NCBI GenBank assembly: GCA_001821135.1
Contig: MHSA01000012.1
Location: 6,341 to 70,340, forward strand
Direction: 5' to 3'
Source: Candidatus Taylorbacteria bacterium RIFCSPLOWO2_01_FULL_48_100
Lineage (GTDB): Bacteria > Patescibacteriota > Minisyncoccia > Phycocordibacterales > UBA10002
Length of the DNA: 64,000 nucleotides
This document shows, piece by piece, positions 10,399 through 47,948 of this stretch. The notes under the pieces are model-generated. The model searched no databases, was not told where the DNA came from, and saw only the letters and a program-made list of their open reading frames with translations. The first letter of the stretch is position 1. The number at the start of each line of letters is the position of its first letter. The position numbers and the translations under genes were made by a program.

Positions 10399-10644
10399 AT
10401 GGGACCAGTTAACACCTTCATCAACAAAATCGGGGAGAACATTCTGAACCCCCTGATTTACCTTATGTTCGGGGTTGCATCCCTCACATTCGCGTGGGGG
10501 GTGTATGTGTTTCTCGCGAATCTAGACAATGAAGAAAAACGCAAAGAAGGCGGGTGGGCAATGCTCTGGGGTGTGCTCGGGATGGCGATAATGCTTGGAG
10601 CGAAGGGGATTGTAGCGGTTATAAAAGAGACGATTGGGGTGTGA
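10399..10644 (+). CDS. VirB2/TrbC-like pilin family small membrane protein (paralog 6, short)
   Basis: Core NLDNEEKRKEGGWAMLWGVLGMAIMLG. 81 aa. Confidence 0.5.
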   Translation: MGPVNTFINKIGENILNPLIYLMFGVASLTFAWGVYVFLANLDNEEKRKEGGWAMLWGVLGMAIMLGAKGIVAVIKETIGV

Positions 10645-10652
10645 GAATAAAG

Positions 10653-10765
10653 ACACCCCTCCGCCTCGCGGACTCGGCACCTCCCCTTAGGTTAAGGGCA
10701 GGATTGGAAAAAGAAAAACCCTCTCGCCCTTTTCATAAGGGGGAGAGGGTAGGGTGAGGGGGTGT
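10653..10765. repeat. GC-rich palindromic MITE-like repeat, copy 1 (modules A then B), with a terminator-like hairpin at 10791-10824
   Basis: Ends acacccctc...gagggggtgt are inverted. Near-identical to the copy at 14632-14744. Confidence 0.7.
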
Positions 10766-10830
10766 TTGAAACAGAAAATAAGAAAAAAATCACCCCCTCA
10801 CTTGTCCGACAAGTGAGGGGGTGTGTGTTT

Positions 10831-11466
10831 TCATTCCATCCGTCCGCTGATTTTCAGCGGAAAGTTGGTGAGCGAGAGGAATCGAAGGACATTCGGCTTC
10901 CCGATGTCGGGGTCGAGTCCCGGGCCGATGATGTGGATGACCCCATCCGCATTCACCGCCAGCACGCCTTCGCGCTTCGTTCCGTCGTCTGCGAACGCAT
11001 CCATCTGCGAACGCCTGCCGTAGAGGTTCAGCGGCTCGCTCCACTGCTCAATCGGCGTGTTGATTGTGCCGATTGGAGCGAGGATGTTGATTTGTTTCTG
11101 GTCGCGAGCAACAGGCGGTCCCGCTTGCGTGGTAATTCCTGCCTGCGCTGGCGCTTGTTGCACCTGCGGCGGCACATAGGTGTAATCGCCTTTCCAGAAC
11201 ATTTTCGGCCCGATGATGAAGATGCAGAGCACGGCGGTGAAGGCAAGAAGTGCAGCGAGTTTCGCAAACGCAATTCCCGTTTCCCACACTTTTTTCCAAT
11301 CGCGTTTTTTTGCGGTTACGGCAGGGGCGGGTGTCGGAGCTCCTCCAGGCACTGGCGTTGTCGGGTTTTTCTTAAACCACCCCGAGATTTTCGTCCAATT
11401 TCCAATCAGAAGAGCGATAATCGCCAACCCAACCGCGCTCCAGATTATGATTGTCAGCCATTTCAT
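10831..11466 (-). CDS. hypothetical membrane protein with Pro-rich linker
   Basis: Good RBS (AGGAAAAATCTTATG). Two TM helices. Terminator hairpin downstream. Overlapping plus-strand ORFs are judged spurious. Confidence 0.5.
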   Translation of the reverse strand: MKWLTIIIWSAVGLAIIALLIGNWTKISGWFKKNPTTPVPGGAPTPAPAVTAKKRDWKKVWETGIAFAKLAALLAFTAVLCIFIIGPKMFWKGDYTYVPPQVQQAPAQAGITTQAGPPVARDQKQINILAPIGTINTPIEQWSEPLNLYGRRSQMDAFADDGTKREGVLAVNADGVIHIIGPGLDPDIGKPNVLRFLSLTNFPLKISGRME

Positions 11467-11537
11467 AAGATTTTTCCTTTCGGTTCAGTGCAGGACTTTA
11501 TGTCAAGCAACTGTTCTAATATATATTATAGCAAAAA

Positions 11538-11570
11538 AGACACCCGAAGTCAAGGACTTCGGGTGTTGTG
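11538..11570 (-). terminator. rho-independent terminator for the SPFH-family gene
   Basis: On the minus strand: acacccgaagtccttgacttcgggtgt followed by TTTTTT. Confidence 0.6.
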
Positions 11571-11580
11571 AATTAACGAC

Positions 11581-12774
11581 TTATTTGTTGATTTGGATAG
11601 CGCCGCCTTCTACCCAAGTAACGCCTGTTTTTATTTTGTCGGCCTTCTCAATGTTAAGCCGAGCAATATCAACCGCGAATTTTGCCTGCAGAATTTCCGT
11701 AGTTACTCCAGTTGCGGTTATCTGCGAGGTGAGCGCGGCGGCATCGGCAGTAGCAACGGTTGTTATCGCCTTCGCGTGCTTCTCTGCTTTCATCACTTCT
11801 GCGTCACCCTCAAGCTCAGCGATTTTCTTTGCTTTAAGTGCTTTCGCCGCTGTGTCATCCAATTTTGACAACTGAATCTGGACGACCCGTGAGTCAATCA
11901 GATACACGCCAAACTCTTCAATCAAACCGCGCGGACCGTAGTTGAGCGGGTCTAACGCTTCCCAGAAGAAGTCCGACTGCGACCCGGTAACTCCCAATTT
12001 TATGAACGCTTCATATCCACCTGGATATTTGCGCAGATAGTCAATGACCGCTGCCTGTATCACTTGTTCCAAGAGCGAGAAGAACCGCTCGCGATAAGTA
12101 AAAACAATAGGTTGCGGCTTCACTATTTGAAAATTATTCTGAAGCAAGACGCTTGCTTCAAACAAATCCAGAAATTCCACATCGCGCACGAGCACAGGTC
12201 GCGGAAACTTCCAAAGAAGCGAGGTTTCTTCCGTCGTGTCGCCGGTTTGATTGTGGACCGAACTGTCCAGCCATTTCTCAATTGGGGCGTTTTCGGGTAC
12301 TGCGGTATCCGGACGGATGCGCAAGTGAACCACTTTGAATTTGTGTATTTTCCAAAGCGGATACAACACACTTACCCAATAAAACCCGCATAACTCAGCG
12401 AGTGGTCGTTTTTTTTCTTTCTTATTCATACCGAGGACAGCACCAGTAGTATCTTTGACTTCTCCGGTTCGCACGATGGCGTTACTCACTTGAATATGTT
12501 TTTCATCAAAGGTCGGTTTTCCGTCAGATCCTTTGATTAGTTTGCCGGTCGCGTTTTTATTGGCTTCTCTCACATAGAGCCACCCCATATTTTTTTGTTG
12601 ATAGTGCCATCCGTCAATGTTTTCCAACACATCGTCAAGTTTTCCGCCCTTAACGATAAACTCAATTGTGTCTTGGTCTACAAATGTCGCCTGCTGTTTG
12701 TTTTTCGCGGCGTTGTAGAGGAATAGCACAATGAGCGGTATGAGAATTAGTAATCCGACTATCGTTTCTAACAT
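11581..12774 (-). CDS. SPFH/band-7 (flotillin-like) domain membrane protein
   Basis: N-terminal TM helix. Ala/Glu-rich coiled-coil C-terminus typical of flotillin/HflK-like proteins. The assignment is a weak recollection. Confidence 0.45.
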   Translation of the reverse strand: MLETIVGLLILIPLIVLFLYNAAKNKQQATFVDQDTIEFIVKGGKLDDVLENIDGWHYQQKNMGWLYVREANKNATGKLIKGSDGKPTFDEKHIQVSNAIVRTGEVKDTTGAVLGMNKKEKKRPLAELCGFYWVSVLYPLWKIHKFKVVHLRIRPDTAVPENAPIEKWLDSSVHNQTGDTTEETSLLWKFPRPVLVRDVEFLDLFEASVLLQNNFQIVKPQPIVFTYRERFFSLLEQVIQAAVIDYLRKYPGGYEAFIKLGVTGSQSDFFWEALDPLNYGPRGLIEEFGVYLIDSRVVQIQLSKLDDTAAKALKAKKIAELEGDAEVMKAEKHAKAITTVATADAAALTSQITATGVTTEILQAKFAVDIARLNIEKADKIKTGVTWVEGGAIQINK

Positions 12775-12868
12775 AGTTTTTCCTTTCGTTTCAGTTGTTT
12801 ATTGTCAAGGTTCTCTGTGCGGAAATATAGCACAAGGCGCGCTTGTAGTCAAGCGCGCCTAAAAGAAA

Positions 12869-12911
12869 GCCGACACCGAATGTTTGAAGCCCATCAACAT
12901 TCGGTGTCGGC
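12869..12911. repeat. conserved-loop hairpin family Y, copy 1 (16 bp stem, loop tgaagcccatc)
   Basis: gccgacaccgaatgtt-tgaagcccatc-aacattcggtgtcggc followed by a T-run. The same loop sequence recurs at 25301, 44201 and 47908. Confidence 0.6.
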
Positions 12912-12919
12912 TCATTACT

Positions 12920-13099
12920 TTTTTACCGACTCCCCACCAACTTGAGAATTGCGCCTACGCCGACGATAATCGGCCAGGTAACCGCAGTCGTTTCCGGCGA
13001 GATATAGCCGAGCGCGTCAAATAGGAATACGAGCGCGAAGAGAAGCGTGAGGAGCGGGAGAATCCCTATATGGTGTCCGCCTTGTCCTTGTGAAAACAT
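12920..13099 (-). CDS. small two-TM membrane protein (59 aa), hypothetical
   Basis: Translated by hand from the minus strand (MFSQGQGGHHIGILPLLTLLFALVFLFD...). Below the ORF-track size cut-off. Weak RBS. Confidence 0.25.
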
Positions 13100-13230
13100 A
13101 GTATTAAAAGTTATAAATAATAAAAGCGACCATTGTTTCTTACCACACCATTATCGCACACAATACAAACTTACTTGCACGCAATATGTGGATATGTTAG
13201 GGTGCGGGCAGAATAAAGAAAGGAGTAAGT

Positions 13231-13509
13231 ATGAGTACAAAATACACCCGAGGGTGGATTCGAATGCAAGTTCTGGATGGGATTGTTGAAATTGGAAAGT
13301 TCACACCGGGCATCGCTAACAGCGATACCGAGCTTGAACGACAGGATGTCCTGCTTCTAATGTCGCATCTCTCCGGTCGGTTGAATAAATCGATTGAGTG
13401 GAACAGACCACAGCCGAGGCATGGAATCAAAGTGTCCACAGTTGTTGGGTACTTGGAAATAGTACTCAATAGCAACGGAACGCACGAAGAATCCGAATCC
13501 ATCTCATAA
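13231..13509 (+). CDS. hypothetical protein
   Basis: RBS AAAGGAGTAAGTATG. No recognisable domain. Confidence 0.4.
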   Translation: MSTKYTRGWIRMQVLDGIVEIGKFTPGIANSDTELERQDVLLLMSHLSGRLNKSIEWNRPQPRHGIKVSTVVGYLEIVLNSNGTHEESESIS

Positions 13510-13617
13510 ACCTCGCACAAAGGGTATGTGCGGGGTTTTCTTTTGGAAAAGTGAAATTCGTGTTATTATGCAGCCGTTGTGTTTTTAGACGATGTAAAAC
13601 CAAAGGAAAATACTGAA

Positions 13618-14163
13618 ATGGATGATGTGGAGATTTTGCGCGCTTCGCGCGACAACCCGGCGCTGTTTGAGGTGCTTGTTTCTCGTTATGAAGAAGCATT
13701 TTTGCGCAAAGCGAAATATATCTTAAAGGATGACGAAAAGGCGCAGGATGTCGTGCAAGACGCGTTTGTAAAAATATATCTGAACGCGGCGCGCTACCAA
13801 CCAATGCCGGGCGCATCCCTTAAGTCGTGGATGTATAAAGTGCTCGTCAATTTATGTTTTACAGCGTGGAAGAAAGGGAAGCGCGCTCAAGAGTTTAACG
13901 CGCTTTTAGACCCCGAACTTATGGAACTCGTACGCGATGCCGGCGAGGAGTTGGAACGCGAAGCGCGTTATGACCGTGATACCATTGTGTCGCTTCTCTC
14001 CAAACTACCCGTAACATTAGTGCGGGTTATTGAGTTGCATTTTCTTGAAGGCAAGCCCCAGCGCGAGGTCGCGCGCGCAGTGGGCATTTCGGAAGGGGCA
14101 GTGCGGGCGCGGGTGCACCGCGCCAAGCAGGCGATGAAGAAGTTACTTATTTCATCCCGTTAG
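13618..14163 (+). CDS. RNA polymerase sigma-70 factor, ECF subfamily
   Basis: Region 2 (DVVQDAFVKIY) and region 4 HTH (REVARAVGISEGAVRARVHRAKQAMKKLL). RBS AAAGGAAAATACTGAAATG. Confidence 0.8.
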   Translation: MDDVEILRASRDNPALFEVLVSRYEEAFLRKAKYILKDDEKAQDVVQDAFVKIYLNAARYQPMPGASLKSWMYKVLVNLCFTAWKKGKRAQEFNALLDPELMELVRDAGEELEREARYDRDTIVSLLSKLPVTLVRVIELHFLEGKPQREVARAVGISEGAVRARVHRAKQAMKKLLISSR

Positions 14164-14291
14164 AGATAGGACGCGGATGGATAAATCAACACTTCTTTGC
14201 CAACTTTTTGAGTTTAATAAATTTAAAATAGTATTAATCCTACATTGAGAAGCGTCCGCTATCTCTAACGGGATTCACTAAATACTATACT

Positions 14292-14630
14292 ATGGCTGAA
14301 TATATTGAATCAGTAAGGCGGGATATTATGAGGCGCGTGTATGTCGTATTTTTTGTGCGAAAAGTGGTGAAGCCGTTTGTCATTAAAATGGGCTCGGTCG
14401 CCGCGCTTGCTGTTGCGGTCGCCGCGCTCGTATCCGTGCAAAATGTGCTCGGCAATATGCCGTCTCCTGCTGAGTTTGTATCCTTCGGCAAGTTTATATT
14501 CTCGGCATTTGCAAATACGGAACTCTCCGTGCAGGCGCTCTCGCTCGCGGTTGCTGTGCTCGCCGCATTTGCCGTCCGCGACCTCGCGCGCGTTTCGCGA
14601 CTTATCGGAGTACGACGGGTTGCAATGTAA
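14292..14630 (+). CDS. hypothetical membrane protein (possible anti-sigma partner)
   Basis: Hydrophobic 112 aa ORF directly downstream of the ECF sigma gene. No SD sequence. The anti-sigma role is inferred only from position. Confidence 0.35.
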   Translation: MAEYIESVRRDIMRRVYVVFFVRKVVKPFVIKMGSVAALAVAVAALVSVQNVLGNMPSPAEFVSFGKFIFSAFANTELSVQALSLAVAVLAAFAVRDLARVSRLIGVRRVAM

Positions 14631-14631
14631 T

Positions 14632-14744
14632 ACACCCCTCCGCCTCGCGGACTCGGCACCTCCCCTTAGGTTAAGGGCAGGATTGGAAAAAGAAAAACCC
14701 TCTCGCCCTTTTCATAAGGGGGAGAGGGCAGGGTGAGGGGGTGT
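14632..14744. repeat. GC-rich palindromic MITE-like repeat, copy 2
   Basis: Differs from copy 1 by a single mismatch. Lies between convergent genes and abuts the polX stop codon. Confidence 0.7.
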
Positions 14745-16414
14745 CATCTACCTCGGTTTCTTTTCAACCTCACCAGCATCTTTTCAACAGGAAGCGTATT
14801 TACAATATCTTTTTTCTCCGCCCAGCCGCGCCGCGCTTGTCCTATTCCAAGACGAAGCGCCTTGAAGCCGTCGGGTGAGTGCGCGTCGGAACCGATAGAA
14901 AGAAGAACGCCAGCTTGTACGCATTGCCGTATCAGTTCGTCGTGCAAATCAAGGCGCTCCGGCGCCGCGTCAATTTCCAAAACCGTGCCGTTTTCTTTTG
15001 CGGCGGCAATCACCTCGCTCCAGTCAGCGGCAATCGGAGGGCGTTTGTTCAGCATTCGCGCAGATGGGTGAAAGATAATATCCACGAGCGGGTGTTCAAT
15101 CGCTTTAATGAGCCGTTTCGTTTGTTCTTTCACCGAAAGCTCAAAGTGACTATGAACAGATGCGCCCGCAAAGTCCATTTTTGCGAGCGCATCGTCCGCA
15201 AGGTCCAGCGAGCCGTCTTTTTTTATATTCACCTCCGCGCTTTTCAGGATTCTTAATTTTACGCTTTCAGTTTTTAATTTTTTATTCAATGCGTCAATCT
15301 CTTTCACTTGTTCAGCAAACTCTTTTTCATTCATTCCACCAGTCATCGCAAGCCCCTGCGTGTGGTCGGTCATTGCAATGTATTCCAAGCCGAGTGCGCG
15401 CGCTGCGCGCGCCATCTCTTCTATAGAGCGCGTGCCGTCGGTCCAGTCCGAATGCGCCTGCAAGTCGCCTTTTAGGTCGTTATACCCAATTAGGTCTGGG
15501 AGTTTATTGTTTTGACTCGCTTCCAACTCACCTGTCATTTCCCGTAATTCGGGTTCAATATATTTAAGTCCTAATTTCGCATAAAGTTCTTCTTCTGTGC
15601 TAAATAATCCATGCTCATTTAATTTCCACCCTTTTTTGAGCGCTCGTTCGCGAAGCGCGATGTTGTGCGCCCTTGAACCAGTGAAATGGTTGAGCACCGC
15701 GCCCCATGACTCTGGCTGTACGATACGCACATTGATACGCTCTATTTCTGGAAGTTTAGCAATTTTCTTCATCGTTTCTTCCGGCTTTTCAGATACGGCG
15801 AGTATGTCTATGTCGCCGACCGTTTCTTTCATTCTGCGCACAGAGCCCGCGGCAACCGCCTTTTTCACTTCCGGAAATGCGCCGATTTTATGCTCCAGCG
15901 CGTGCGCGACGGGAAGTACCGCGCCGAGAATCATCCTCCCACCGACTTCGCGGCGGAACGCGATGCCTTTGAGAATCTTCTCTTCGCTTTTCTCGCCGAA
16001 GCCCGGTAGCGCGCGCAGGGTACCTGCGCGCGCGGCGGCTTCCAATTCGTCTAGATTTTTGATTTTTAATTTCTCCCACAGCGTCTTTACTGTTTTCGGC
16101 CCTATACCTTCCACCGCGACGAGCTCGCCGACTGCTACCGGCGTTTTCTTTTTCAGCCGTTCATATTCCGCAAAGGTTCCGCGCGCGAGGAGCTCGGCGA
16201 TGTGTGCGGCAATACCCGCGCCGATGCCGGGTATTTCCTTGAGCGCGCCGGGACCACCTATCGCAAAGGTCTCGTAGAGCGGTTCCTCGCGCGCCTCAAT
16301 CGCCAGTGCCGCGCGCTCGTACGCGCGCGGCTTGAACGGCTCGCTCTCCATTTCATACAACGCAGCCGTCTCGCCGAGCAGTTCCGCAATTCGGGTATTT
16401 GAGAGTTGCTTCAT
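14744..16414 (-). CDS. polX: DNA polymerase X family protein with PHP domain
   Basis: Pol beta-like N-terminus (helix-hairpin-helix GIGPKT, GSVRRMKETVGDIDIL) plus a C-terminal PHP phosphoesterase domain. Confidence 0.9.
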   Translation of the reverse strand: MKQLSNTRIAELLGETAALYEMESEPFKPRAYERAALAIEAREEPLYETFAIGGPGALKEIPGIGAGIAAHIAELLARGTFAEYERLKKKTPVAVGELVAVEGIGPKTVKTLWEKLKIKNLDELEAAARAGTLRALPGFGEKSEEKILKGIAFRREVGGRMILGAVLPVAHALEHKIGAFPEVKKAVAAGSVRRMKETVGDIDILAVSEKPEETMKKIAKLPEIERINVRIVQPESWGAVLNHFTGSRAHNIALRERALKKGWKLNEHGLFSTEEELYAKLGLKYIEPELREMTGELEASQNNKLPDLIGYNDLKGDLQAHSDWTDGTRSIEEMARAARALGLEYIAMTDHTQGLAMTGGMNEKEFAEQVKEIDALNKKLKTESVKLRILKSAEVNIKKDGSLDLADDALAKMDFAGASVHSHFELSVKEQTKRLIKAIEHPLVDIIFHPSARMLNKRPPIAADWSEVIAAAKENGTVLEIDAAPERLDLHDELIRQCVQAGVLLSIGSDAHSPDGFKALRLGIGQARRGWAEKKDIVNTLPVEKMLVRLKRNRGR

Positions 16415-16510
16415 TGCCGTTATTATCGCACACGGGCGGCAATCGCAAAACTTGCGTTTTGTCCATTATTGCGATAGGTTGATAACGGATGTTTTTTGAT
16501 TGGAGGAAAA

Positions 16511-16996
16511 ATGAAAACTACTGAAAAAAAGGAACCAGAAATCAAACTATATGGAATTCCTATCTGGTGTCATCATCACTGCGGAAAAATGGGAATTGAA
16601 AAAACAGAATCTTCTTTATTGAAACTTGCGGGAAGTGCGGCGTTCCTAGAAATTGTGAACCCAACACTTTTCAGTGGAAAGAGATATTGGAAGGTTTTGT
16701 GGGAGATCCTGTTTGCTGTGGAAGAGAAGGTGAACGGACAAGTGCTTTTCTCAGACGCTCATTTACGCGCCGCTTTCGGACTCTCAAATGAAATGAAGGT
16801 GTCTAGCGATTGGTTGTTAGAAAAATATGGTGGTGATGTCGCGGCACAAGGGTGTTTCATTCGCTATCAGCAGTTTCTGAATATTCCGGGTCCGGGAACC
16901 GGTAATGATGGAGATCCGAATATCTCCATTGAAATCAACGAGGAAATGAAAAATGCAATCGCGGCACTGTTGCTTACGAAAAGCGTCGCCAACTGA
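16511..16996 (+). CDS. hypothetical protein
   Basis: RBS GGAGGAAAAATG. No family recognised. Confidence 0.45.
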
Positions 16997-17078
16997 TGTT
17001 GATTCACAAAGGGTTTGCTGTCGCAAGACGGCAGACCTTTTCTTTTTAACTAATTTGCTGTTTTTGGCGGTTTCTAGT

Positions 17079-17342
17079 ATGATGTTATTCGTGAAAAAAG
17101 ACATTCACCCGAAGTATTATCCGGAAGCGAAGGTGTCGTGTTCGTGCGGCGCGGTTTTTGCCGTGGGTTCTACCAAGCCGGAATTGCGCGTTGAAATATG
17201 CGGGAACTGCCATCCGTTCTACACAGGCACCGAAAAAATTGTTGACACGGCGGGCCGCGTTGAGCGTTTTAAGTCAAAAATTGCAAAGGCCGCTAGCTTA
17301 CCGCGCGCGGTGAAAAAGGCGGCGAAGAAAAATAAAAAATAA
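17079..17342 (+). CDS. rpmE: 50S ribosomal protein L31
   Basis: KKDIHPKYY...CSCG...[10 protein letters not shown] matches L31. Confidence 0.9.
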
Positions 17343-17350
17343 GACAAAAA

Positions 17351-17445
17351 TCCTCTCGCCCTTTTCCAAAGTGGGAGAGGGTAGGGTGAGGGGGTGTAAG
17401 AAAAAAACACCCCTCCCTTTCCCTCCCCTTAGGTTAAGGGCAGGG
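17351..17445. repeat. GC-rich MITE-like repeat, copy 3 (module order B then A, permuted)
   Basis: cctctcgcccttttccaaagtgggagagggtagggtgagggggtgt, then acacccctccc...ccccttaggttaagggcaggg. Confidence 0.65.
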
Positions 17446-22176: not shown

Positions 22177-23439
22177 ATGTTGGATATAAAATTCATTCGG
22201 GAAAACAAAGAACTCATCGCCGAGGCGGCGCGGAAGAAGCACATCGCGTTCAAGGTGGATGAGCTGATTACCGCAGACGATGAGCGCCGCGCGGTGCTTA
22301 AAATCGTTGAAGACAAACGCGCGGAGCAGAATCGCAAAAGCGAGCAGATTACGCGCGCGCACGACGACAATAAGCGCCAGGCGTTTGTGGAGGAGATGCG
22401 CGCGCTCAAAGTCGGTCTTCAAGAGGAGGAAGAACGGCTGAAAAAGACGACCCAAAAATGGCAGTCGCTAATGCTTCTAGTCCCAAATGTTCCAGATATT
22501 TCGGTGCCGGAAGGGGTTGGCGAGGAAGACAATAAAGAAATGCGGACATGGGGAGAAAAGCCGGAGTTCACATTTGAGCCAAAGAGCCATATTGAACTTA
22601 TGAAGGCGCTTGATATGGCGGATTTTGAACGCGGCGCGGCTGTGTCGGGCTTTCGCGGATATTTCTTGAAGAATGACGGTGCGCTTTTGTCGCTTGCACT
22701 ATGGCGGCTGTGTATGGATTTCTTTACAAAGAAAGATTTTTCGCCAATACTTGCGCCGTCCTTGGTTCGGCGCGAATCACTTCTCGGAACCGGGTATTTG
22801 CCTCAAGGAGAAGACGATTTATACAAAACGCAAGACGGCGACTATCTTGCAGGCACCGCGGAAGTGCCGGTTATGTCGTATTTTGCGGACACAATTTTGA
22901 GTGAGGAAGAATTGCCGAAAAAAATAATTGCGTTCTCTCCGTGTTTTCGGCGTGAGGCGGGGAGCCACGGAAAAGATACAAAAGGGCTGATGCGTGTGCA
23001 TGAGTTTTTCAAGTGCGAGCAAGTGGTGCTTTGCGAAGCGAGCCATCAGGCGTCTGTTGCTTTACACGAAGAGATAAATCGCAACGAGGAGGAATTTATG
23101 GAAACTCTCGGTATTCCCTATCGTACAGTTATCAACTGTGGCGCTGACCTTGGTCTTGGGCAAGTAAAAAAATACGACATTGAATTATGGGTGCCGTCGG
23201 AAAAACGGTATCGGGAAATAAGCTCCGCCTCATACTTCCATGATTTTCAGACACGACGGCTTAATATTCGCTACAAAAACAAAGATGATAAAGCACAATT
23301 TGCCCATTCACTGAATTGCACTGCCGCGCCAACGCCCCGTCTTTTGATTTCCATCCTTGAAAACAACCAGCGCGCGGACGGGAGCATTGCGGTTCCTAAA
23401 GTGCTGGTGCCGTATTTTGGAAAAGAAGAAATAAGATAA
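22177..23439 (+). CDS. serS: serine--tRNA ligase
   Basis: N-terminal coiled coil (MLDIKFIREN) and class II core motifs. Start taken at the internal Met. Confidence 0.9.
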   Translation: MLDIKFIRENKELIAEAARKKHIAFKVDELITADDERRAVLKIVEDKRAEQNRKSEQITRAHDDNKRQAFVEEMRALKVGLQEEEERLKKTTQKWQSLMLLVPNVPDISVPEGVGEEDNKEMRTWGEKPEFTFEPKSHIELMKALDMADFERGAAVSGFRGYFLKNDGALLSLALWRLCMDFFTKKDFSPILAPSLVRRESLLGTGYLPQGEDDLYKTQDGDYLAGTAEVPVMSYFADTILSEEELPKKIIAFSPCFRREAGSHGKDTKGLMRVHEFFKCEQVVLCEASHQASVALHEEINRNEEEFMETLGIPYRTVINCGADLGLGQVKKYDIELWVPSEKRYREISSASYFHDFQTRRLNIRYKNKDDKAQFAHSLNCTAAPTPRLLISILENNQRADGSIAVPKVLVPYFGKEEIR

Positions 23440-23441
23440 CA

Positions 23442-23632
23442 CTCGGAATGCTGCTTTTGCGGAACCGGAAAATTTCCCCTGCGAGGAAATTTTCCTTATC
23501 CGCTCGCCTCGCTCTTCCTCGCAGATTCGGAATCCATGCCCGCTCGGCTCCTCGCCCGCCCGTACCGAAACGGTACATTTCGGGCGGGCCGTTCCGCAAC
23601 CTGTCTGCCGACAGGCAGAAAGCACATTGCTT
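23442..23632. repeat. TIR-bounded structured element, copy 1 (long form with two extra nested hairpins)
   Basis: Shares ~110 nt at near identity with 43881-44015. Outer 20 bp stem ggaatgctgcttttgcggaac/gttccgcaa..agcacattgc. Begins 3 nt after the serS stop. Confidence 0.7.
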
Positions 23633-25300: not shown

Positions 25301-25336
25301 TAGACACACGATGTTGATGTGCTTCAAACATCTGGT
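25301..25336. repeat. hairpin family Y, copy 2 (reverse orientation)
   Basis: cacgatgttgatgtgcttcaaacatctggtg; reverse complement of the Y consensus. Confidence 0.55.
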
Positions 25337-25387
25337 GCCCCTGCAATTTATCATTAAGCCACGATCGTATCTTAATAATAAAACTAA

Positions 25388-25435
25388 TATACACTATCTC
25401 TGACGGTCGTTAGAGATAGTGTATTCAGTCATTTT
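25388..25435. repeat. hairpin family X, copy 1 (acactatctct...agagatagtgt + attttgc)
   Basis: Also present at 44097-44140. A related long-range inverted repeat (gttagagatag) lies at 14155-14290. Confidence 0.5.
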
Positions 25436-36777: not shown

Positions 36778-37748
36778 TCGTGCTCAAGCATATCAAATAT
36801 TTGCTTTTTTTGCGATGGGAGAAACCACTGTATTTCTTTATTTCTTTTAAACCAAGTCATTTGCCGTTTGGCGTAGAGGTATATTTCCGTTTGCAACTTC
36901 TCAATCATTTCTACTTTAGTCATATATCCGCGTAAGTAGCGCGATAGATATCGGTACTCAAGTCCGAGCGATTCCATCCGTTTCCACGACAGGCCGCGCT
37001 TATGTAGCCGCCGCGCCTCTTCTATCATTTTATACCTTCTAATTCGCGCGAATAAGCGCATAGAGATTTTCTTTTTTAATTCCGCGGGTGGAAGTGTGAT
37101 GCCGAGCCATACAACATTAAGCGAGCGGACAAAGGCAAGGCGTTCTGAAAAACTGGGGTGGGGGCGTGGCCATTCAATTCTGATTGAATGGGGGGGTCCG
37201 CCTGAGGCGGACAGAACGCTCTTGTCGGCGTCCGCGAGCGCGATTTCGATTGCACGCACAAGACGACGCGGATTGTGTGAATCTATTGTTTCCGCGCGGT
37301 GCTTGTTAAGTGTTTTGAGAAGTGCGAATAATTCCGGCGCGGATTTTTTCTCCAGTTTTTTGCGGAGCGCGGGGTTTGGCGGCACATCGGGAATTTGAAC
37401 GCGCCCGAGCGCGGCGTCTATATAGTGACCCGTGCCGCCGCAGATAATAGGGAGGCGGCCGCGCGCAAAAATCTCTGAGATTTTTGCGCGAGCAAGTTTT
37501 TCATAATCCGCCGCCGTGAATTGTTTTTTCGGATACGCAACATCAAGAAGGTGGTGGGGGACTCTGCGCATTTCTTTTTTGGTAATTTTACCAGTGCCGA
37601 CATTGAGTCCCTTGTACACCTGCCGTGAATCGGCAGAAATTACCTCGCCGCAAAATTTGCGCGCAAGCGTTACCGCGAGCGCGCTTTTTCCACTCGCCGT
37701 CGGTCCGACAACGACAATTATTTTTTTCTTTTTCCGTTCACTGCGCAT
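36768..37748 (-). CDS. miaA: tRNA dimethylallyltransferase
   Basis: P-loop (VVVGPTASGKS) and MiaA core. Confidence 0.85.
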   Translation of the reverse strand: MRSERKKKKIIVVVGPTASGKSALAVTLARKFCGEVISADSRQVYKGLNVGTGKITKKEMRRVPHHLLDVAYPKKQFTAADYEKLARAKISEIFARGRLPIICGGTGHYIDAALGRVQIPDVPPNPALRKKLEKKSAPELFALLKTLNKHRAETIDSHNPRRLVRAIEIALADADKSVLSASGGPPHSIRIEWPRPHPSFSERLAFVRSLNVVWLGITLPPAELKKKISMRLFARIRRYKMIEEARRLHKRGLSWKRMESLGLEYRYLSRYLRGYMTKVEMIEKLQTEIYLYAKRQMTWFKRNKEIQWFLPSQKKQIFDMLEHEGL

Positions 37749-40002: not shown

Positions 40003-40839
40003 TTGTGCATGGGTAGGATAAGAATAATTTTACAGAAAGATGTTCTAGAAAAGATGTATGTAAAAAAGAACCTAACGCCTGTTGAAATTGGGAGGCGATT
40101 GAAATGCAGTTTTAAGACGGTCCGCAATCGCCTAAAAGAATTCGGCATTCCTTTTAAAAATCCCGCATTAGCTCGAATGCGGTATCAAAAGTTTGATTGT
40201 ACACACGATCCATTTATTCGCTCGTACATGCTTGGATTTCGGCTCGGTGATTTGAATGTATATAAAAGGGGAGAACATTCGGAGACAATAGTCGTGCGTT
40301 GTCACACCACCCACAAAGCTCAAGTGTTGGTCATTCAATCATTATTTAATCCATTTGGCCGCGTTTCGGTAACACCTCGAGAAGAGCATTTTACAGTAAA
40401 TTGTTTTCTTAATCGGAGTTTTGAGTTTCTTCTTCCTAAAAACGAGCGGGTTTGGCAGTGGATAAAAGACGGTGATTCTGTTGCGCAGAGTTTCATTGCG
40501 GGTTATGTTGATGCTGAAGCCAATTTTATTATCAATCAAGGGCGTGCTCGTTTTAAAATTGATTCCTATGACTACGCAATATTAGAGTGGATATGTTCTT
40601 GGCTTTATAAGAAAAGCATTTCTTATAGTTACAGGTGCATTCGCAAGAAAGGACCATCGTGGAGAAATCAACCTCCTTTAAACGGAGATTTATGGCGGTT
40701 GAATATCAACGAAGCAGGTTCACTGGAAAGATTTATAAAAGAGATTTTTCCTTTTTTACGCCATGCGCATCGGATTAGGGATGTAAAAAAATGTATCACC
40801 AATATCAAATTAAGAAGAAAAAATGGCTCAATTAAATAA
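40003..40839 (+). CDS. LAGLIDADG homing endonuclease (double-motif) with N-terminal HTH
   Basis: Two LAGLIDADG-type motifs (SYMLGFRLGDLNV and SFIAGYVDAEANF). AT-rich. Overlaps the lepA start by 17 nt. Confidence 0.65.
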   Translation: MCMGRIRIILQKDVLEKMYVKKNLTPVEIGRRLKCSFKTVRNRLKEFGIPFKNPALARMRYQKFDCTHDPFIRSYMLGFRLGDLNVYKRGEHSETIVVRCHTTHKAQVLVIQSLFNPFGRVSVTPREEHFTVNCFLNRSFEFLLPKNERVWQWIKDGDSVAQSFIAGYVDAEANFIINQGRARFKIDSYDYAILEWICSWLYKKSISYSYRCIRKKGPSWRNQPPLNGDLWRLNINEAGSLERFIKEIFPFLRHAHRIRDVKKCITNIKLRRKNGSIK

Positions 40840-42622
40840 CATCAGAAATTTCTGTATCATAAGTCATGTGGACCACGGAAAGTCCACCTTGGCAGACCGA
40901 CTACTAGAGATTACCGGTACGATTGAGAAGCGCAAGATGCGCGCGCAGGTGCTGGATTCTATGGATCTTGAGCGCGAGCGCGGTATTACGATAAAGATGA
41001 CGCCTGTTCGTATGGCGTATCAGGAATACATTCTGAATCTTATAGACACTCCAGGGCATATTGATTTCTCGTATGAAGTATCGCGCGCTTTGCGCGCGGT
41101 TGAAGGCGCGGTGCTTCTTGTGGATGCAACACAAGGCGTGCAGGCGCAGACCATAACTGTGCTACACGCGGCGCAGGCGGCTGGGCTCACCATTATTCCA
41201 GTCGTGAACAAAATTGATTCGCAACTCGCGCGTGTTCCCGAAACGAAAAAAGAAATCGCGTTATTGCTTGGGTGCGGAGAAGGCGAGATTTTAGAGGTTT
41301 CTGGAAAAACTGGGCAATGGGTACCAGAACTTTTGGAGGAAGTTATCAAACGAGTACCACCCCCTCGCCCCGCCGACTCGGCACTCCCCCTTAAACAAGG
41401 GGGAGATGGATTTAGGGCACTTATTTTTGATTTTAAATATTCAAACCACGCGGGCGTTGTAGTGTACTGCCGAGTTTTTGGCGGCACGATGGCGAAGGGC
41501 GCGCGATTGAAGTTTGCCGCGGCGGGCAGAGAGTTCACCGTAATAGAAGTCGGCACCTTTTCGCCGGAAGAAACGGCTGCGAACGCGCTCTCGGCTGGAG
41601 AAATTGGGTACATTGTAACCGGTGTGAAGGAACCGGGTGTTGCGTCAGTCGGCGATACGGTAGTTGAGGTAAAGGGTTCGCTCTCTGCACTCCCTGGCTA
41701 TGCGCGCCCGAGCCCAGTCGTGTGGGCGAGCTTCTTTCCTGAAAGTGGAGACGAATTTAACGCGCTTCGCCACGCGCTCGGGCGGCTTCGTCTCTCGGAT
41801 TCTGCGTTTACTGCGGAAGAAGAGTCGTCGGGTGCCTTGGGGCGCGGATTCCGATGTGGGTTTCTAGGAATGCTTCATTTGGAAATAATTTCAGAGCGGC
41901 TTCGCCGCGAATTCAAAATAAATCTAGTTGTAACGCATCCATCTATCGCATATGAAGTACTAACGAAGCGCGTTAAGAAAATTACTGCGTACACCATTAT
42001 GCAGTTTCCTGAACACGGAGAGGTTGAGGAAGTTCGCGAACAGTGGGTGGCGGCGGAGCTCATTTCGCCGCCCGAATATCTTGCGCCCGTGATGCTCCTT
42101 CTCGGCAAGCACGAGGCGCGGGTTGGGGAGACCGAAAATATAGGCAACCGCTTCGTGGTGCGTTTTGAGGCACCACTCAGGGAACTTATGCGCGGATTTT
42201 TTGATGAACTAAAAAGCGTGTCGTCGGGTTTTGCATCCTTATCTTACCGCCTTCTCCGTGAGCTTCGGAAAGCAGATGTCGTAAAAATGGAAATCCTTGT
42301 TGCAGATGACCCTATGCCTGCATTTGGACGGGTCGTTTCGCGCCGCGCTGCAAACGACGAGGCGGAAGCCGTTGTGGAAAAACTATCAAAAATCCTCCCT
42401 CGCCAACAGTTTGAACTGAAAATACAGGCGCGCGTTGACGGAAAGATTGTCGCATCGCGGCGGCTCACTGCGCTCCGAAAAGATGTAACGGGTTACTTGT
42501 ACGGCGGAGACCGCACGAGGAAAATGAAGTTGTGGAAACAGCAGAAAGAAGGTAAGAAACGGCTTGCCGAGCGCGGGCGAGTAGAGATACCCGCCGAAGC
42601 GTTCGTGAAGATGCTTCAGTAG
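40823..42622 (+). CDS. lepA: translation elongation factor 4
   Basis: NFCIISHVDHGKSTLADRLL G-domain and the LepA-specific C-terminal domain. Confidence 0.9.
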   Translation: MAQLNNIRNFCIISHVDHGKSTLADRLLEITGTIEKRKMRAQVLDSMDLERERGITIKMTPVRMAYQEYILNLIDTPGHIDFSYEVSRALRAVEGAVLLVDATQGVQAQTITVLHAAQAAGLTIIPVVNKIDSQLARVPETKKEIALLLGCGEGEILEVSGKTGQWVPELLEEVIKRVPPPRPADSALPLKQGGDGFRALIFDFKYSNHAGVVVYCRVFGGTMAKGARLKFAAAGREFTVIEVGTFSPEETAANALSAGEIGYIVTGVKEPGVASVGDTVVEVKGSLSALPGYARPSPVVWASFFPESGDEFNALRHALGRLRLSDSAFTAEEESSGALGRGFRCGFLGMLHLEIISERLRREFKINLVVTHPSIAYEVLTKRVKKITAYTIMQFPEHGEVEEVREQWVAAELISPPEYLAPVMLLLGKHEARVGETENIGNRFVVRFEAPLRELMRGFFDELKSVSSGFASLSYRLLRELRKADVVKMEILVADDPMPAFGRVVSRRAANDEAEAVVEKLSKILPRQQFELKIQARVDGKIVASRRLTALRKDVTGYLYGGDRTRKMKLWKQQKEGKKRLAERGRVEIPAEAFVKMLQ

Positions 42623-43874: not shown

Positions 43875-43880
43875 AAGACG

Positions 43881-44015
43881 CTCGGAATGCTGCTTTTGCA
43901 GAACCGGAAGATTTCCCCTGCGAGGAAATCTTCCTTATCCGCTCGCCTCGCTCTTCCTCGCAGACTCGGAATCCATGCCCGCTCGGCTCCTCGCCGTTCC
44001 GCAAAAGCACATTCC
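43881..44015. repeat. TIR-bounded structured element, copy 2 (short form)
   Basis: Near-identical to 23442-23556 plus the shared 3' arm. Outer stem ggaatgctgcttttgcagaac/gttccgcaaaagcacattcc. Confidence 0.7.
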
Positions 44016-44096
44016 TCACTCTCGTTATTTATTTCAACACTATTCCAATTAAACGCTATAGCAAGTAACTGGAATAGTTTACTCAATTCAACATAC

Positions 44097-44140
44097 ACTA
44101 TCTCTAGCAATCGCCAAAGATAGTGTATCCAATCATTTTG
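44097..44140. repeat. hairpin family X, copy 2
   Basis: tacactatctctagcaatcgccaaagatagtgta + attttgc. Confidence 0.5.
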
Positions 44141-44200
44141 CCTGCCCGCCGACGAGGAGGGCAAAATGTCTGTATATCCCGACATCCTCTTTGGCACCAG

Positions 44201-44232
44201 ATGTTGATGGTTTCAAACATCTGGTGCGTCTC
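44201..44232. repeat. hairpin family Y, copy 3
   Basis: caccagatgttgatggtttcaaacatctggtg. Confidence 0.5.
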
Positions 44233-44270
44233 GGGACATAGTTTATATTTTGTGATAACATATATTTAGA

Positions 44271-44566
44271 GCCGAGGTAGCTCAGTTGGTAGAGCGTCCG
44301 CCTGAAATCTTCGGGCCTTTCCGCCGCAAGGCGGATAGAAAAGCGGGTGAAATCGGGGAACATCCAATGACAAACAATCGGACAATCCCGAGCCAAGCTC
44401 GCCGAATAGGCGAGAAGGTGTAGAGACTATTCCTTTGGGAAGTACCCTCTTTTTAACAAAAGATGGGGAAGCGCCCGCCCCCTACTCCATCAAAGATGGA
44501 CGGGTGATGATATAGTCCAAATTATGGAAGAGCGGTAGGTCGGCAGTTCGATTCTGCCCCTCGGCA
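44271..44566 (+). tRNA. tRNA-Phe(GAA) interrupted by a group I intron in the anticodon loop
   Basis: 5' exon 44271-44303 (acceptor gccgagg, D-arm tagctcagttggtagagc, anticodon-stem 5' strand tccgc, loop cu|). 3' exon 44527-44566 (gaaga, anticodon-stem 3' strand gcggt, variable loop, T-arm ggcag-ttcgatt-ctgcc, acceptor cctcggc-a). Confidence 0.7.
44304..44526 (+). other. group I intron (~223 nt) within tRNA-Phe
   Basis: Contains group I core-like elements: P-like aaaagcgggtgaaa, Q-like aatcccgagc, R-like tagagactat, S-like gatatagtcc. The last 5' exon base is U, the intron ends in G, and an internal guide GGGC can pair with the exon end GCCU. Confidence 0.6.
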
Positions 44567-44600
44567 TTTGTAAAATTAGGAATTTTTTATAAAAACCACT

Positions 44601-47907: not shown

Positions 47908-47948
47908 CACACACCCGATGTTTGAAGCCCATCAACATCGGGTGTTGT
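47908..47948. repeat. hairpin family Y, copy 4
   Basis: cacccgatgtt-tgaagcccatc-aacatcgggtg; loop sequence identical to copy 1. Confidence 0.55.

Follow-up and report, generated by a model that had tools for sequence, protein, structure and literature searches.

The repeats found in the window (the whole 64-kb stretch of DNA analyzed here) are, with good support, dispersed GC-rich units that are prone to form hairpins and triplexes and are related to the orphan BoxC repeats of Escherichia coli. Knowledge of BoxC/PIT repeats in that species dates from the 1990s; no function or origin has been established for them. A joint explanation, in which a family of triplex-type units originated in a cassette with a DUF559 nuclease gene and was spread by the action of that nuclease, has in our view a slightly better than even chance of being correct.

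An earlier note on this DNA had described two near-identical copies of a repeat composed of two modules, A and B, and a third copy in which the order of the modules is reversed. The first two (10653-10765 and 14632-14744) indeed match at 112 of 113 positions (99%) and are grouped by a repeat family search (98% over 116 nt), and the third (17351-17445) contains both modules in B-A order. The parts of these copies, along with a neighboring hairpin, are as follows:

Copy 1, module A: 10653 to 10702, plus strand; a long-form unit with its C-rich strand on the plus strand, made up of a head (ACACCCCTCC), a 17-nt insert (GCCTCGCGGACTCGGCA) and a hairpin (CCTCCCCTTAGGTTAAGGGCAGG); placed by the triplex-type scan on the minus strand at 10655-10702.
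Copy 1, spacer: 10703 to 10718, no strand; attggaaaaagaaaaa, lying between the two units, with an identical spacer in copy 2.
Copy 1, module B: 10719 to 10765, minus strand; a short-form unit (nhmmer E = 6e-10; triplex-type scan 10722-10763), which on the plus strand reads as C arm CCCTCTCGCCC, loop, G arm GGGGGAGAGGG, TA, mirror block GGGTGAGGGGG and TGT.
Hairpin beside copy 1: 10791 to 10823, no strand; a perfect 15-bp hairpin, CACCCCCTCACTTGTC-cga-GACAAGTGAGGGGGTG, terminator-like on both strands (-32.7 kcal/mol, z = -8.3).
Copy 2, module A: 14632 to 14681, plus strand; a long-form unit that begins 1 nt past the TAA stop of the gene for a 112-aa protein.
Copy 2, module B: 14698 to 14744, minus strand; a short-form unit, the outermost base of which overlaps the TGA stop of PolX.
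Copy 3, module B: 17351 to 17397, minus strand; a short-form unit with three hairpin changes, beginning 9 nt past the rpmE stop.
Copy 3, module A: 17407 to 17445, plus strand; a short form, ACACCCCTCC-CTTT-CCCTCCCCTTAGGTTAAGGGCAGGG; placed by the triplex-type scan on the minus strand at 17409-17445.

The inverted termini noted previously are present in copies 1 and 2, where ACACCCCTCC and GAGGGGGTGT are inverted at 9 of 10 positions, but the left end had been given as acaccccctc and requires correction to ACACCCCTCC. The 23-mer CCTCCCCTTAGGTTAAGGGCAGG occurs exactly three times in the window, as does the module B hairpin at up to three mismatches, with zero occurrences expected in each case; GAGGGGGTGT, at up to one mismatch, occurs nine times (1.35 expected). 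All three copies occupy short intergenic gaps, as had been stated. The neighbors of copy 1 are a T4SS-pilin-like gene (10399-10644, plus strand) and a convergent 211-aa gene (10831-11466, minus strand); copy 2 lies between the 112-aa gene (14292-14630, plus strand) and the convergent PolX gene (14744-16414, minus strand), and copy 3 between rpmE and prfA. The open reading frames at 10554-10757 and 14377-14736, already suspected of being spurious, do exist, run through the repeat in a frame other than that of the real genes, and should be left unannotated.

The reversed order in copy 3 had been attributed to modular permutation, an interpretation that does not hold: it is an effect of orientation and involves no shuffling. 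When module B is reverse-complemented, it aligns with module A, and the two represent one unit type; both are detected by a single nhmmer profile, and A-B is thus a tail-to-tail arrangement and B-A a head-to-head arrangement of the same kind of unit. The elements of about 113 bp are, on well-supported evidence, inverted pairs of two unit subtypes, and solo units occur beside both kinds of pair. Each unit is GC-rich and about 40-50 nt long. Its head, ACACCCC(C)TC, is separated by a 2-20-nt spacer from a hairpin whose 5' arm is rich in C and whose 3' arm is rich in G. On the G-rich strand, a C block is followed by a complementary G block and by a second G block mirroring the first; this is the broad BoxC/PIT/triplex-motif architecture, and its presence in the window units is well supported. 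The units also fit the REP/BIME description of an imperfect palindrome (20-40 nt in that class) that occurs solo or in alternating clusters.

The predicted folds of the repeats beat those of shuffled sequences on either strand (z = -3.2 to -4.9). A scan for the succession of C block, G block and mirror block finds seven sites in the window, where shuffled sequence yields about 0.4; six are units of the family and one is the hairpin at 10791-10823. In a non-circular form of the test, the starting set was 136 asymmetric C/G hairpins; 20 of these have the G arm perfectly mirrored within 32 nt downstream, while the controls on the same hairpins give a direct copy downstream in two and a mirror upstream in one. 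A G-quadruplex reading of module B was rejected: although the module has four G runs, a mirror-repeat layout fits the conserved head better, and fits module A too. Also rejected was a reading of the heads as DNA uptake sequences, which are far denser than the roughly nine head motifs per 64 kb seen here. CACCTCCCCTTA resembles an anti-Shine-Dalgarno mimic in letters only. At gathering thresholds, Rfam gives no match on the repeats, and reports only tRNAs and a group I intron.

The location of the units could point to functional elements of RNA or transcription, such as terminators, stabilizers of mRNA 3' ends, or hairpins controlling translation, kept by selection at gene ends. All three intergenic copies are found at gene ends and fold more strongly than shuffles, module A of copy 3 stops 6 nt before the prfA ATG, and in several relatives GGCAGGAGG forms the end of the unit, a few bases ahead of an ATG. 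However, the units lack a U tract, and a consensus terminator scan of the window did not pick the unit hairpins, reporting instead the separate hairpin at 10791-10823 and a weak six-pair site at 14738-14754. The former is preceded by an A run and followed by a T run, shares the unit head motif in its stem, and has an orthologous counterpart that is kept in one relative (L026); it resembles a bidirectional intrinsic terminator serving the convergent gene pair. The units themselves occur in either orientation relative to transcription, are present or absent at orthologous sites or swapped there for other variants, are also found in frame within genes, and match no Rfam family, and their E. coli relatives showed neither promoter nor terminator activity (PMC4666352). 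The tally of unit contexts is crude, ORF-based and unreliable for small genes, and is used here only qualitatively. A selected role of this kind is unlikely, and we regard the window copies as passive DNA at gene ends.

Two further sites, beyond those listed in the earlier note, lie within genes:

Unit in lepA: 41357 to 41405, plus strand; a long-form unit, in frame, coding for PPPRPADSALPLKQGG; repeat family match of 83% over 36 nt.
Pair in a helicase gene: 63348 to 63448 (approximate boundaries), plus strand; a degenerate unit pair, in frame, coding for ITSLPLAPLGYSPQGENKRDSPLEGGVSSRETGDV, in the linker of a UvrD-like helicase/PD-(D/E)XK nuclease ORF.

The head of the lepA unit falls on conserved VPPP codons. 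A LepA that is 88% identical and lacks the unit has 27 unrelated nucleotides where the window has 45, with conserved flanks, and the extra LepA residues derive from the repeat. The helicase/nuclease ORF extends past the end of the window, and its linker exceeds that of most homologs by about 16-20 aa. In a by-eye alignment, 27 of 29 nt in the degenerate pair match a unit from locus L119, and the pair is probably a member of the family. An ORF of 278 aa upstream of lepA was considered as a LAGLIDADG endonuclease on the basis of a by-eye likeness, and was rejected, with no Pfam match.

Outside the window, an exact 20-mer from the family is found at 18 sites on 17 contig stretches in three other genomes, whose orthologous proteins are 74-83% identical to those of the window. 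The dispersal proposed earlier is thus real, and it rules out the local duplication of one segment that had been named as the reading that would overturn it. Pairs at unrelated loci are 92-94% identical to copy 3. The element orthologous to copy 2 is present in L024 and L027 and absent in L026, and the 87-90% relatives have an occupied site behind PolX, the 72% relative, in which the convergent genes overlap by 33 nt, an empty one. Other unit variants fill orthologous gaps in relatives; the first nhmmer profile was narrow and missed variant units in L024 and L026, which were found by reading those gaps. In another case, the difference between L104 and L105 consists of a 78-nt unit. Presence and absence at orthologous sites imply insertion or loss of units, and unit-bearing loci vary between close relatives, as seen at a few loci without statistical comparison.

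Part of the previous description of the repeats as a MITE-like family stands: they are dispersed, small and gene-less, have inverted termini, and have larger gene-carrying relatives, as expected for MITE-like derivatives. The remainder does not, since neither a target-site duplication at any copy nor a transposase was found. A classical MITE, meaning a deletion derivative of an insertion sequence with a DDE transposase that moves by cut-and-paste via terminal inverted repeats, would fit a 113-bp element with nearly inverted ends, the 99% identity of two copies, which includes the spacer, and dispersal across genomes. It would not fit the flanks of copies 1-3 (aaag/ttga, taat/catc and aaat/taaa), which like the L104/L105 polymorphism contain no target-site duplication. 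Single units and head-to-head pairs are also unexpected for an element with fixed terminal inverted repeats, no unit is adjoined by a transposase, and the larger relatives with the same ends encode only a DUF559 nuclease of 114-122 aa. We consider this origin highly improbable.

In Patescibacteria and Deinococcus, two inverted units bound a cassette of about 0.45-0.5 kb that contains a leader with a -10-like TACAAT and the gene for this DUF559 (Vsr-like PD-(D/E)XK) protein. Its stop codon is usually located within the loop of the 3' hairpin. The cassette protein matches DUF559 (PF04480; E = 2.4e-34, 117.9 bits, cut-off 20.6) and is homologous to PDB 3HRL (E = 6.8e-24), and the D, E-x-D-G-x-x-H, D and R residues (D52, E63, D65, H69, D76 and R79) are invariant from Patescibacteria through E. 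coli YcjD. Units flank the DUF559 gene in L007, L013, L014 and L015 (loci L007-L023 were chosen for the presence of units, not for the gene), and do so as well in L104/105, L110, L119, L121 and L117, which were chosen by protein alone. The L117 cassette has its own matching end sequences; in L117, L121 and Deinococcus, each cassette has a left end that matches its right end, and these ends vary from lineage to lineage. Whole cassettes are found inside conserved operons, in one case between secY and adk and in another, that of Deinococcus, within the hpa operon. The Deinococcus cassette has 18-nt perfect inverted termini, the 11-mer cores of which occur only at the cassette within 50 kb.

In three cyanobacteria and in Photobacterium, related units flank or adjoin a DUF559 gene in a less complete arrangement, and in repeat-rich cyanobacteria this adjacency could be due to chance. 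The arrangement at E. coli ycjD is also less complete: the protein terminates in ...SPSP*, the stop codon falls within a degenerate BoxC, and 168 nt downstream is TM_ECO no. 9. By a crude test, C-termini read into units in 36 of 120 DUF559 homologs, compared with none of 120 LepA proteins and three of 120 helicases. Locus L114 has no 3' unit, L115 and two cyanobacterial loci exhibit the reverse arrangement, and the DUF559 gene of N. gonorrhoeae is flanked by a different, direct repeat. In one E. coli strain without ycjD, the fabI-sapF interval holds the eef efflux operon, with junctions that lack BoxC, and does not represent a clean empty site.

The identity of the flanked gene bears on a model in which the units are a REP/BIME family moved in trans by a RAYT, an IS200/IS605-type Y1 transposase encoded elsewhere in the genome. 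Palindromic units of 35-50 nt that lie at gene ends, either singly or in groups that alternate in orientation, and that lack target-site duplications would be consistent with such a family. The gene between the units, however, is DUF559 and not a Y1 transposase, and a tblastn search of 1.2 Mb with an approximate IS200 TnpA query, a weak test, gave a best E of 7.7. Movement by a RAYT is quite improbable.

It may instead be that the repeats are structure-prone orphans without an enzyme of their own, whose spread, conversion and decay come about by replication slippage, template switching and recombination at hairpin or triplex DNA, and that DUF559 carries units for another reason, such as regulation of a toxic nuclease gene or shared permissive gaps. 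A 2015 survey of the related E. coli repeats reported genomic instability around the motifs and no mobility genes nearby (Holder et al. 2015, PMC4666352). E. coli genomes that lack ycjD still have BoxC copies (in the rows examined), the 64-kb window contains no DUF559 gene (nor was one assigned to the source genome within the sequence searched), and a deletion between two similar heads could account for the difference between L104 and L105. Such a view does not readily accommodate the constant way in which gene and unit overlap, with the stop placed in the loop of the hairpin all the way from Patescibacteria to E. coli, nor cassette ends that match within a cassette and differ by lineage, whole cassettes within the secY-adk and hpa operons, and Deinococcus head motifs confined to the cassette. 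We find it rather doubtful.

In the nuclease-driven explanation, the DUF559 protein is a candidate enzyme for mobilizing the repeats, and from their context it is moderately likely that the gene-less pairs and solo units of the window are non-autonomous derivatives of cassette ends. A PD-(D/E)XK nuclease is not by itself a transposase. The candidate nuclease would recognize the extruded structure of a unit, whose hairpin often has a conserved C-C or G-G mismatch, and would then nick or cut it; host repair or replication could afterwards copy, convert or delete units. Such a model would explain spread without target-site duplications, the near-identity of units across diverged genomes, and the turnover of intergenic gaps and variable protein loops. 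More tentatively, and with somewhat less than an even chance, DUF559 (YcjD-family, Vsr-like) may be the missing partner of BoxC/PIT repeats in at least four phyla. The cassette of about 0.5 kb would be the autonomous form, and the orphans, including E. coli BoxC, would be gene-less and spread or homogenized by nuclease-triggered repair, in a RAYT/REP-like system with a PD-(D/E)XK enzyme. A link between DUF559 and triplex-motif repeats does not appear in PMC4666352. If it is true, whether YcjD cuts or converts BoxC DNA is testable in E. coli, and there would be a second repeat-plus-enzyme system beside REP/RAYT, with a different enzyme fold. For genomes of the candidate phyla radiation, it would provide a source of assembly breaks and explain spurious ORFs, among them DUF559 proteins whose annotation takes in a tail derived from the repeat, as well as length variation in proteins such as LepA.

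Like BoxC/PIT/TM_ECO repeats, the units show three blocks in succession, in which a C arm is followed by its complementary G arm and then by a mirror G block, are intergenic and multi-copy, are found either singly or in inverted pairs that combine two subtypes, frequently have a conserved stem mismatch, and occupy loci that vary between close relatives. The letters are also very similar (GGGAGAGGG..TAGGGTGAGGGG), and GGGGGAGAGGG-TA-GGGTGAGGGGG in module B is similar to GGGGAGAGGG-TTA-GGGTGAGGGG of E. coli. The E. coli motifs likewise form inverted A+B pairs, and triplex formation in vivo is unsupported for them (PMC4666352). The window units differ in having stems of 10-11 nt, a first loop of up to 9 nt, and a second loop of 2-3 nt or a 17-nt insert; the strict TM_ECO pattern, CCCTCNCCC N3-6 GGGNGAGGG N3 GGGNGAGGG, has no matches in the window and one in an E. 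coli control locus. The host is a bacterium of the candidate phyla radiation, while the census of the pattern in PMC4666352 is of proteobacteria. The window family is also denser (about one per 9 kb, versus 23 per 4.6 Mb in K-12) and has in-frame copies in genes.

Other systems share some of these features. Rickettsia palindromic elements (RPEs), reportedly described by Ogata et al. in 2000, are said to be inserted in frame in protein-coding genes at tolerant loops, which calls to mind the lepA loop and the helicase linker. RPEs are, however, 100-150 bp long, AT-richer and unrelated in sequence, whereas the window family is mostly intergenic; we know of no nuclease gene associated with RPEs. 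The Correia elements of Neisseria, which are MITEs, have fixed ends and TA target duplications. They are similarly gene-less, about 100-150 bp long, equipped with inverted ends, and located at gene ends, where they are transcribed with their neighbors, but the window family lacks a duplication and its ends occur alone and in either order. The compact, selfish-looking DUF559 cassette with its promoter-like leader resembles PD-(D/E)XK homing endonucleases that are free-standing or reside in introns, for example I-Bth0305I (PDB 3R3P), to which the DUF559 match is weak (E = 0.0027). Homing is directed at one allelic site, in contrast to units at many unrelated sites, most of them gene-less.

REP/BIME elements and the RAYT transposases associated with them, reportedly the subject of work by Nunvar in 2010, Bertels and Rainey in 2011, and Ton-Hoang in 2012, are likewise short imperfect palindromes at gene ends, clustered in alternating orientation and without target-site duplications. 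In both systems, a small gene is located between inverted copies of the repeat on which its product is thought to act. In the family described here, that gene encodes a Vsr-like PD-(D/E)XK nuclease and not an HUH/Y1 transposase, the units possess a mirror-repeat third block, and the stop codon of the gene is found inside the 3' unit.

The copies at 10653-10765 and 14632-14744, described in an earlier note as near-identical, agree at 112/113 positions, including a 16-nt spacer, and the third, at 17351-17445, does carry both modules in the order B-A. The gene contexts proposed for the three copies agree with the public gene calls on the contig, and the two ORFs that the note had considered spurious both exist, crossing the repeat in a frame that differs from that of the real genes. 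The module A hairpin (a 23-mer) has three exact occurrences in the window and the module B hairpin also occurs three times, with none expected in either case, while the terminal 10-mer, allowing at most one mismatch, is found 9 times against 1.35 expected.

What had been called modular permutation is replaced here by one unit type in two orientations, since the reverse complement of module B aligns with module A and with units of other genomes, and solo units are present in other genomes. On this alignment, the heads point outward in A-B, a tail-to-tail pair, and B-A is the head-to-head arrangement. Every unit combines the head ACACCCC(C)TC with a C-rich spacer and a hairpin whose 5' arm is rich in C and whose 3' arm is rich in G. 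In copies 1 and 2, module A is of a long form, in which a 17-nt insert (GCCTCGCGGACTCGGCA) separates the head from the hairpin; copy 3 has the short form of module A. A second repeat family, with two CTCG-motif-rich 118-nt copies (CGCTCGCCTCGCTCTTCCTCGCAGACTCGG) that are 96% identical (23439-23556 and 43878-43995), resembles this 17-nt insert. In two stretches from other genomes (L015 4555-4640 and L013 82-165), ~85 nt (tccttacaggagctgtacacctttcgcattctgaa...) are inserted into loop 2 of a long-form unit; conservation of this sequence between two genomes suggests that it may be a small RNA or an element nested in the unit.

Other palindromes are present in the window. A third family, CACC(A/G)GATGTT(T/G)A..CATC(T/G)GGTG, is found at 12874-12908, 25303-25337, 44198-44228 and 47912-47945. 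Palindromes built on TAGAGATAG / CTATCTCTA (14144-14284, 25389-25424 and 44093-44128; 4 exact 9-mers against 0.15 expected) include a pair that brackets the gap between a sigma-factor gene and a 112-aa gene, and three copies of TTCTAATTCGCGCGAATTAG (at 37033, 37791 and 38140) lie near tRNA-Trp and tRNA-Leu. A tRNA gene at 44270-44567 is apparently split by a group I intron, which Rfam places at 44294-44532; the sequence immediately preceding the intron resembles the 5' part of a tRNA, and 44538-44567 looks like a 3' part with a T arm. ARAGORN makes no call for this tRNA.

The units are dispersed well beyond this contig. Exact matches to a 20-mer of the module A hairpin number 7, 8 and 3 in three other metagenome-assembled genomes. 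The proteins of these genomes share 74-83% identity with their orthologues in the window, and despite this level of divergence the long form of A is identical over its full length in one stretch (L012). Pairs in head-to-head order at unrelated loci match copy 3 at 92-94% identity. Individual sites are polymorphic. After PolX, the pair is present in relatives at 87-90% protein identity; in the 72% relative there is no pair, and the two convergent genes there have a 33-nt overlap. A relative whose PrfA is 94% identical has another unit variant between rpmE and prfA, and in the 72% relative the pilin-p211 gap contains a head-to-head pair of other variants together with a conserved terminator hairpin. 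One stretch (L010) has a unit at a gene end where the window has none, and two contigs encoding an identical DUF559 protein (a Vsr-like PD-(D/E)XK nuclease family) differ by a 78-nt unit. Target-site duplications are not seen at any of the copies. This turnover between relatives, the presence of units in both orientations, the absence of U tracts and the reported lack of terminator activity of the related E. coli repeats (PMC4666352) make RNA-level roles, such as the termination or RNA stabilisation once suggested for the copies, unlikely.

Units also occur inside two genes of the window:

41357-41405, in frame: long-form unit in lepA, its head coinciding with conserved VPPP codons
63348-63448, in frame: degenerate unit pair in the linker of a helicase-nuclease ORF

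In a LepA of 88% identity, 27 unrelated nt stand in place of the 45 found in the window, between conserved flanks, and the loop that contains the unit differs greatly in length from one related LepA to another. LepA homologues from related candidate-phyla-radiation bacteria (P0001-P0120) range from 506 to 814 aa, with much of the variation in the loop after VPPP; some of the inserts are proline/glycine-rich and resemble translated repeats, and a few homologues have an extra PF13366 domain. A 278-aa ORF (40003-40839) shares 17 nt with the start of lepA; no Pfam model matches it at E <= 0.001, and by eye it looks like a LAGLIDADG homing endonuclease, a tentative assignment. The helicase-nuclease linker is ~16-20 residues longer than in most homologues, and this case is weaker because the closest homologue also has a long linker, of different sequence.

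Of the 17 stretches that the 20-mer picked out, 4 have the unit directly next to a 117-aa gene. This gene encodes a DUF559 protein (E = 2.4e-34), homologous to PDB 3HRL and matching the homing endonuclease domain 3R3P weakly. Gene and units form a cassette of ~0.5 kb between inverted heads: a head-outward unit is followed by a short A/G-rich leader with TACAAT, the ORF and an inverted unit, and the stop codon lies inside the hairpin loop of that 3' unit. The nuclease gene is physically embedded in the repeats. The same architecture is found at further loci picked by the DUF559 protein alone:

L104/L105: cassette between groES and secG
L110: cassette adjoined by a gene-less pair
L119: cassette between secY and adk
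L121: cassette
L117: cassette whose ends are different, yet match each other

Two loci picked in this way are exceptions, L114 lacking the 3' unit and L115 having the reverse arrangement. At L110, the left unit of the gene-less pair differs by reading at ~1 position from the cassette's own left unit. We slightly favour a model in which gene-less pairs derive from cassette ends. For models based on REP/RAYT or on DDE-type MITEs, the defining enzyme does not appear in the sequences examined, and the DDE-type model is further weakened by the absence of a target-site duplication at any of copies 1-3.

The link between DUF559 and such repeats extends outside this lineage. A DUF559 protein search of a plasmid collection gave 36 records, of which six were inspected. 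In Deinococcus sp. NW-56, a DUF559 gene lies within the hpa operon, on the opposite strand, between perfect 18-nt inverted termini whose 11-mer cores are found nowhere else in 50 kb. Units flank the DUF559 gene in three cyanobacteria, and in Photobacterium a pair is located ~50 nt downstream of it. The N. gonorrhoeae gene does not fit: its flanks are a different, direct repeat. In strain 2022NG-0032, these direct repeats of ~35 nt (cagcctgcacaagctgttttccttgcagc) are not triplex-type units; the record, filed as a 2.17 Mb plasmid, looks like a chromosome. The sole DUF559 gene of E. coli K-12, ycjD, encodes a protein 42% identical to those of Patescibacteria. It ends in ...SPSP*, its TGA falls within the loop of a degenerate BoxC, and TM_ECO no. 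9 is 168 nt downstream. The median number of BoxC places in an E. coli genome is 18. By a crude test, about a third of 120 DUF559 homologues have C-termini reading into such units (endings include STCP, SPSP, PLLxKERVG and SPQGEGPGVRAA), against 0/120 for LepA and 3/120 for helicases. No link of DUF559 or YcjD to these repeats appears in the literature searched, the coverage of which was limited. Across 5426 E. coli genomes, the fabI-sapF interval is occupied in one of two ways, by ycjD with BoxC in about 3350-3450 genomes (K-12 1351164-1351828) or by the eefRABC efflux operon with an MFS transporter gene (one strain inspected, BEN2908); a sapF-side hairpin is common to both.

It may be, at somewhat less than even chances, that the DUF559 protein acts catalytically on the units, given the conserved overlap of gene and unit, the match between the two ends of a cassette, the insertion of cassettes in operons and the conservation of catalytic-type residues. 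Plausibly, the nuclease would nick the extruded unit structure and repair would then copy or convert units. Vsr is a mismatch nuclease, so the conserved stem mismatch in the units is suggestive in this regard. Against such a role, there is no DUF559 gene within the 64-kb window and none known in the source genome, and ycjD-less E. coli strains, with the eef operon in the same interval, retain BoxC. Orphan repeats driven by their structure, with no enzyme, are a possible but less likely alternative. It is the nuclease association that deserves further work.

On the G-rich strand, the head of the unit is the mirror of the G arm, as in GGGGGAGAGGG-TA-GGGTGAGGGGG for module B and GGGGAGGG-AAA-GGGAGGGG for short A. 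A scan of the window for a C block, a complementary G block and a mirror block yields 7 sites against ~0.4 in shuffles: 5 of the units in the three copies, the lepA unit and a terminator hairpin. In a test free of any assumption about the mirror, 20 of 136 asymmetric C/G hairpins from non-redundant loci have a perfect G-arm mirror <=32 nt downstream, compared with 2/136 for a direct copy downstream and 1/136 for a mirror upstream.

This layout is that of the BoxC / PIT / TM_ECO motif of E. coli (Holder et al. 2015, PMC4666352), and the module B sequence is near the E. coli type A motif. TM_ECO has 23 copies in E. coli K-12, including five inverted pairs, each of type A plus type B; a one-mismatch stem is frequent, and the study reports neither promoter nor terminator activity, more variable loci around the motif and no neighbouring transposase or integrase (PMC4666352). 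BoxC-like motifs on a Deinococcus plasmid (L132, 30-77 and 37265-37309) have a hairpin within loop 2 (ACCCTCTCCCCTGGTGGGAGAGGG-CCTGGCGAAGCCAGG-GGTGAGGGG), paralleling the long-form units of the window. The strict published TM_ECO pattern is absent from the window and present at an E. coli control locus; the family is therefore filed as a variant of the broad class and not as TM_ECO proper. The repeats are a real feature and a variant of the broad BoxC / PIT class, and the family is very probably BoxC-like.
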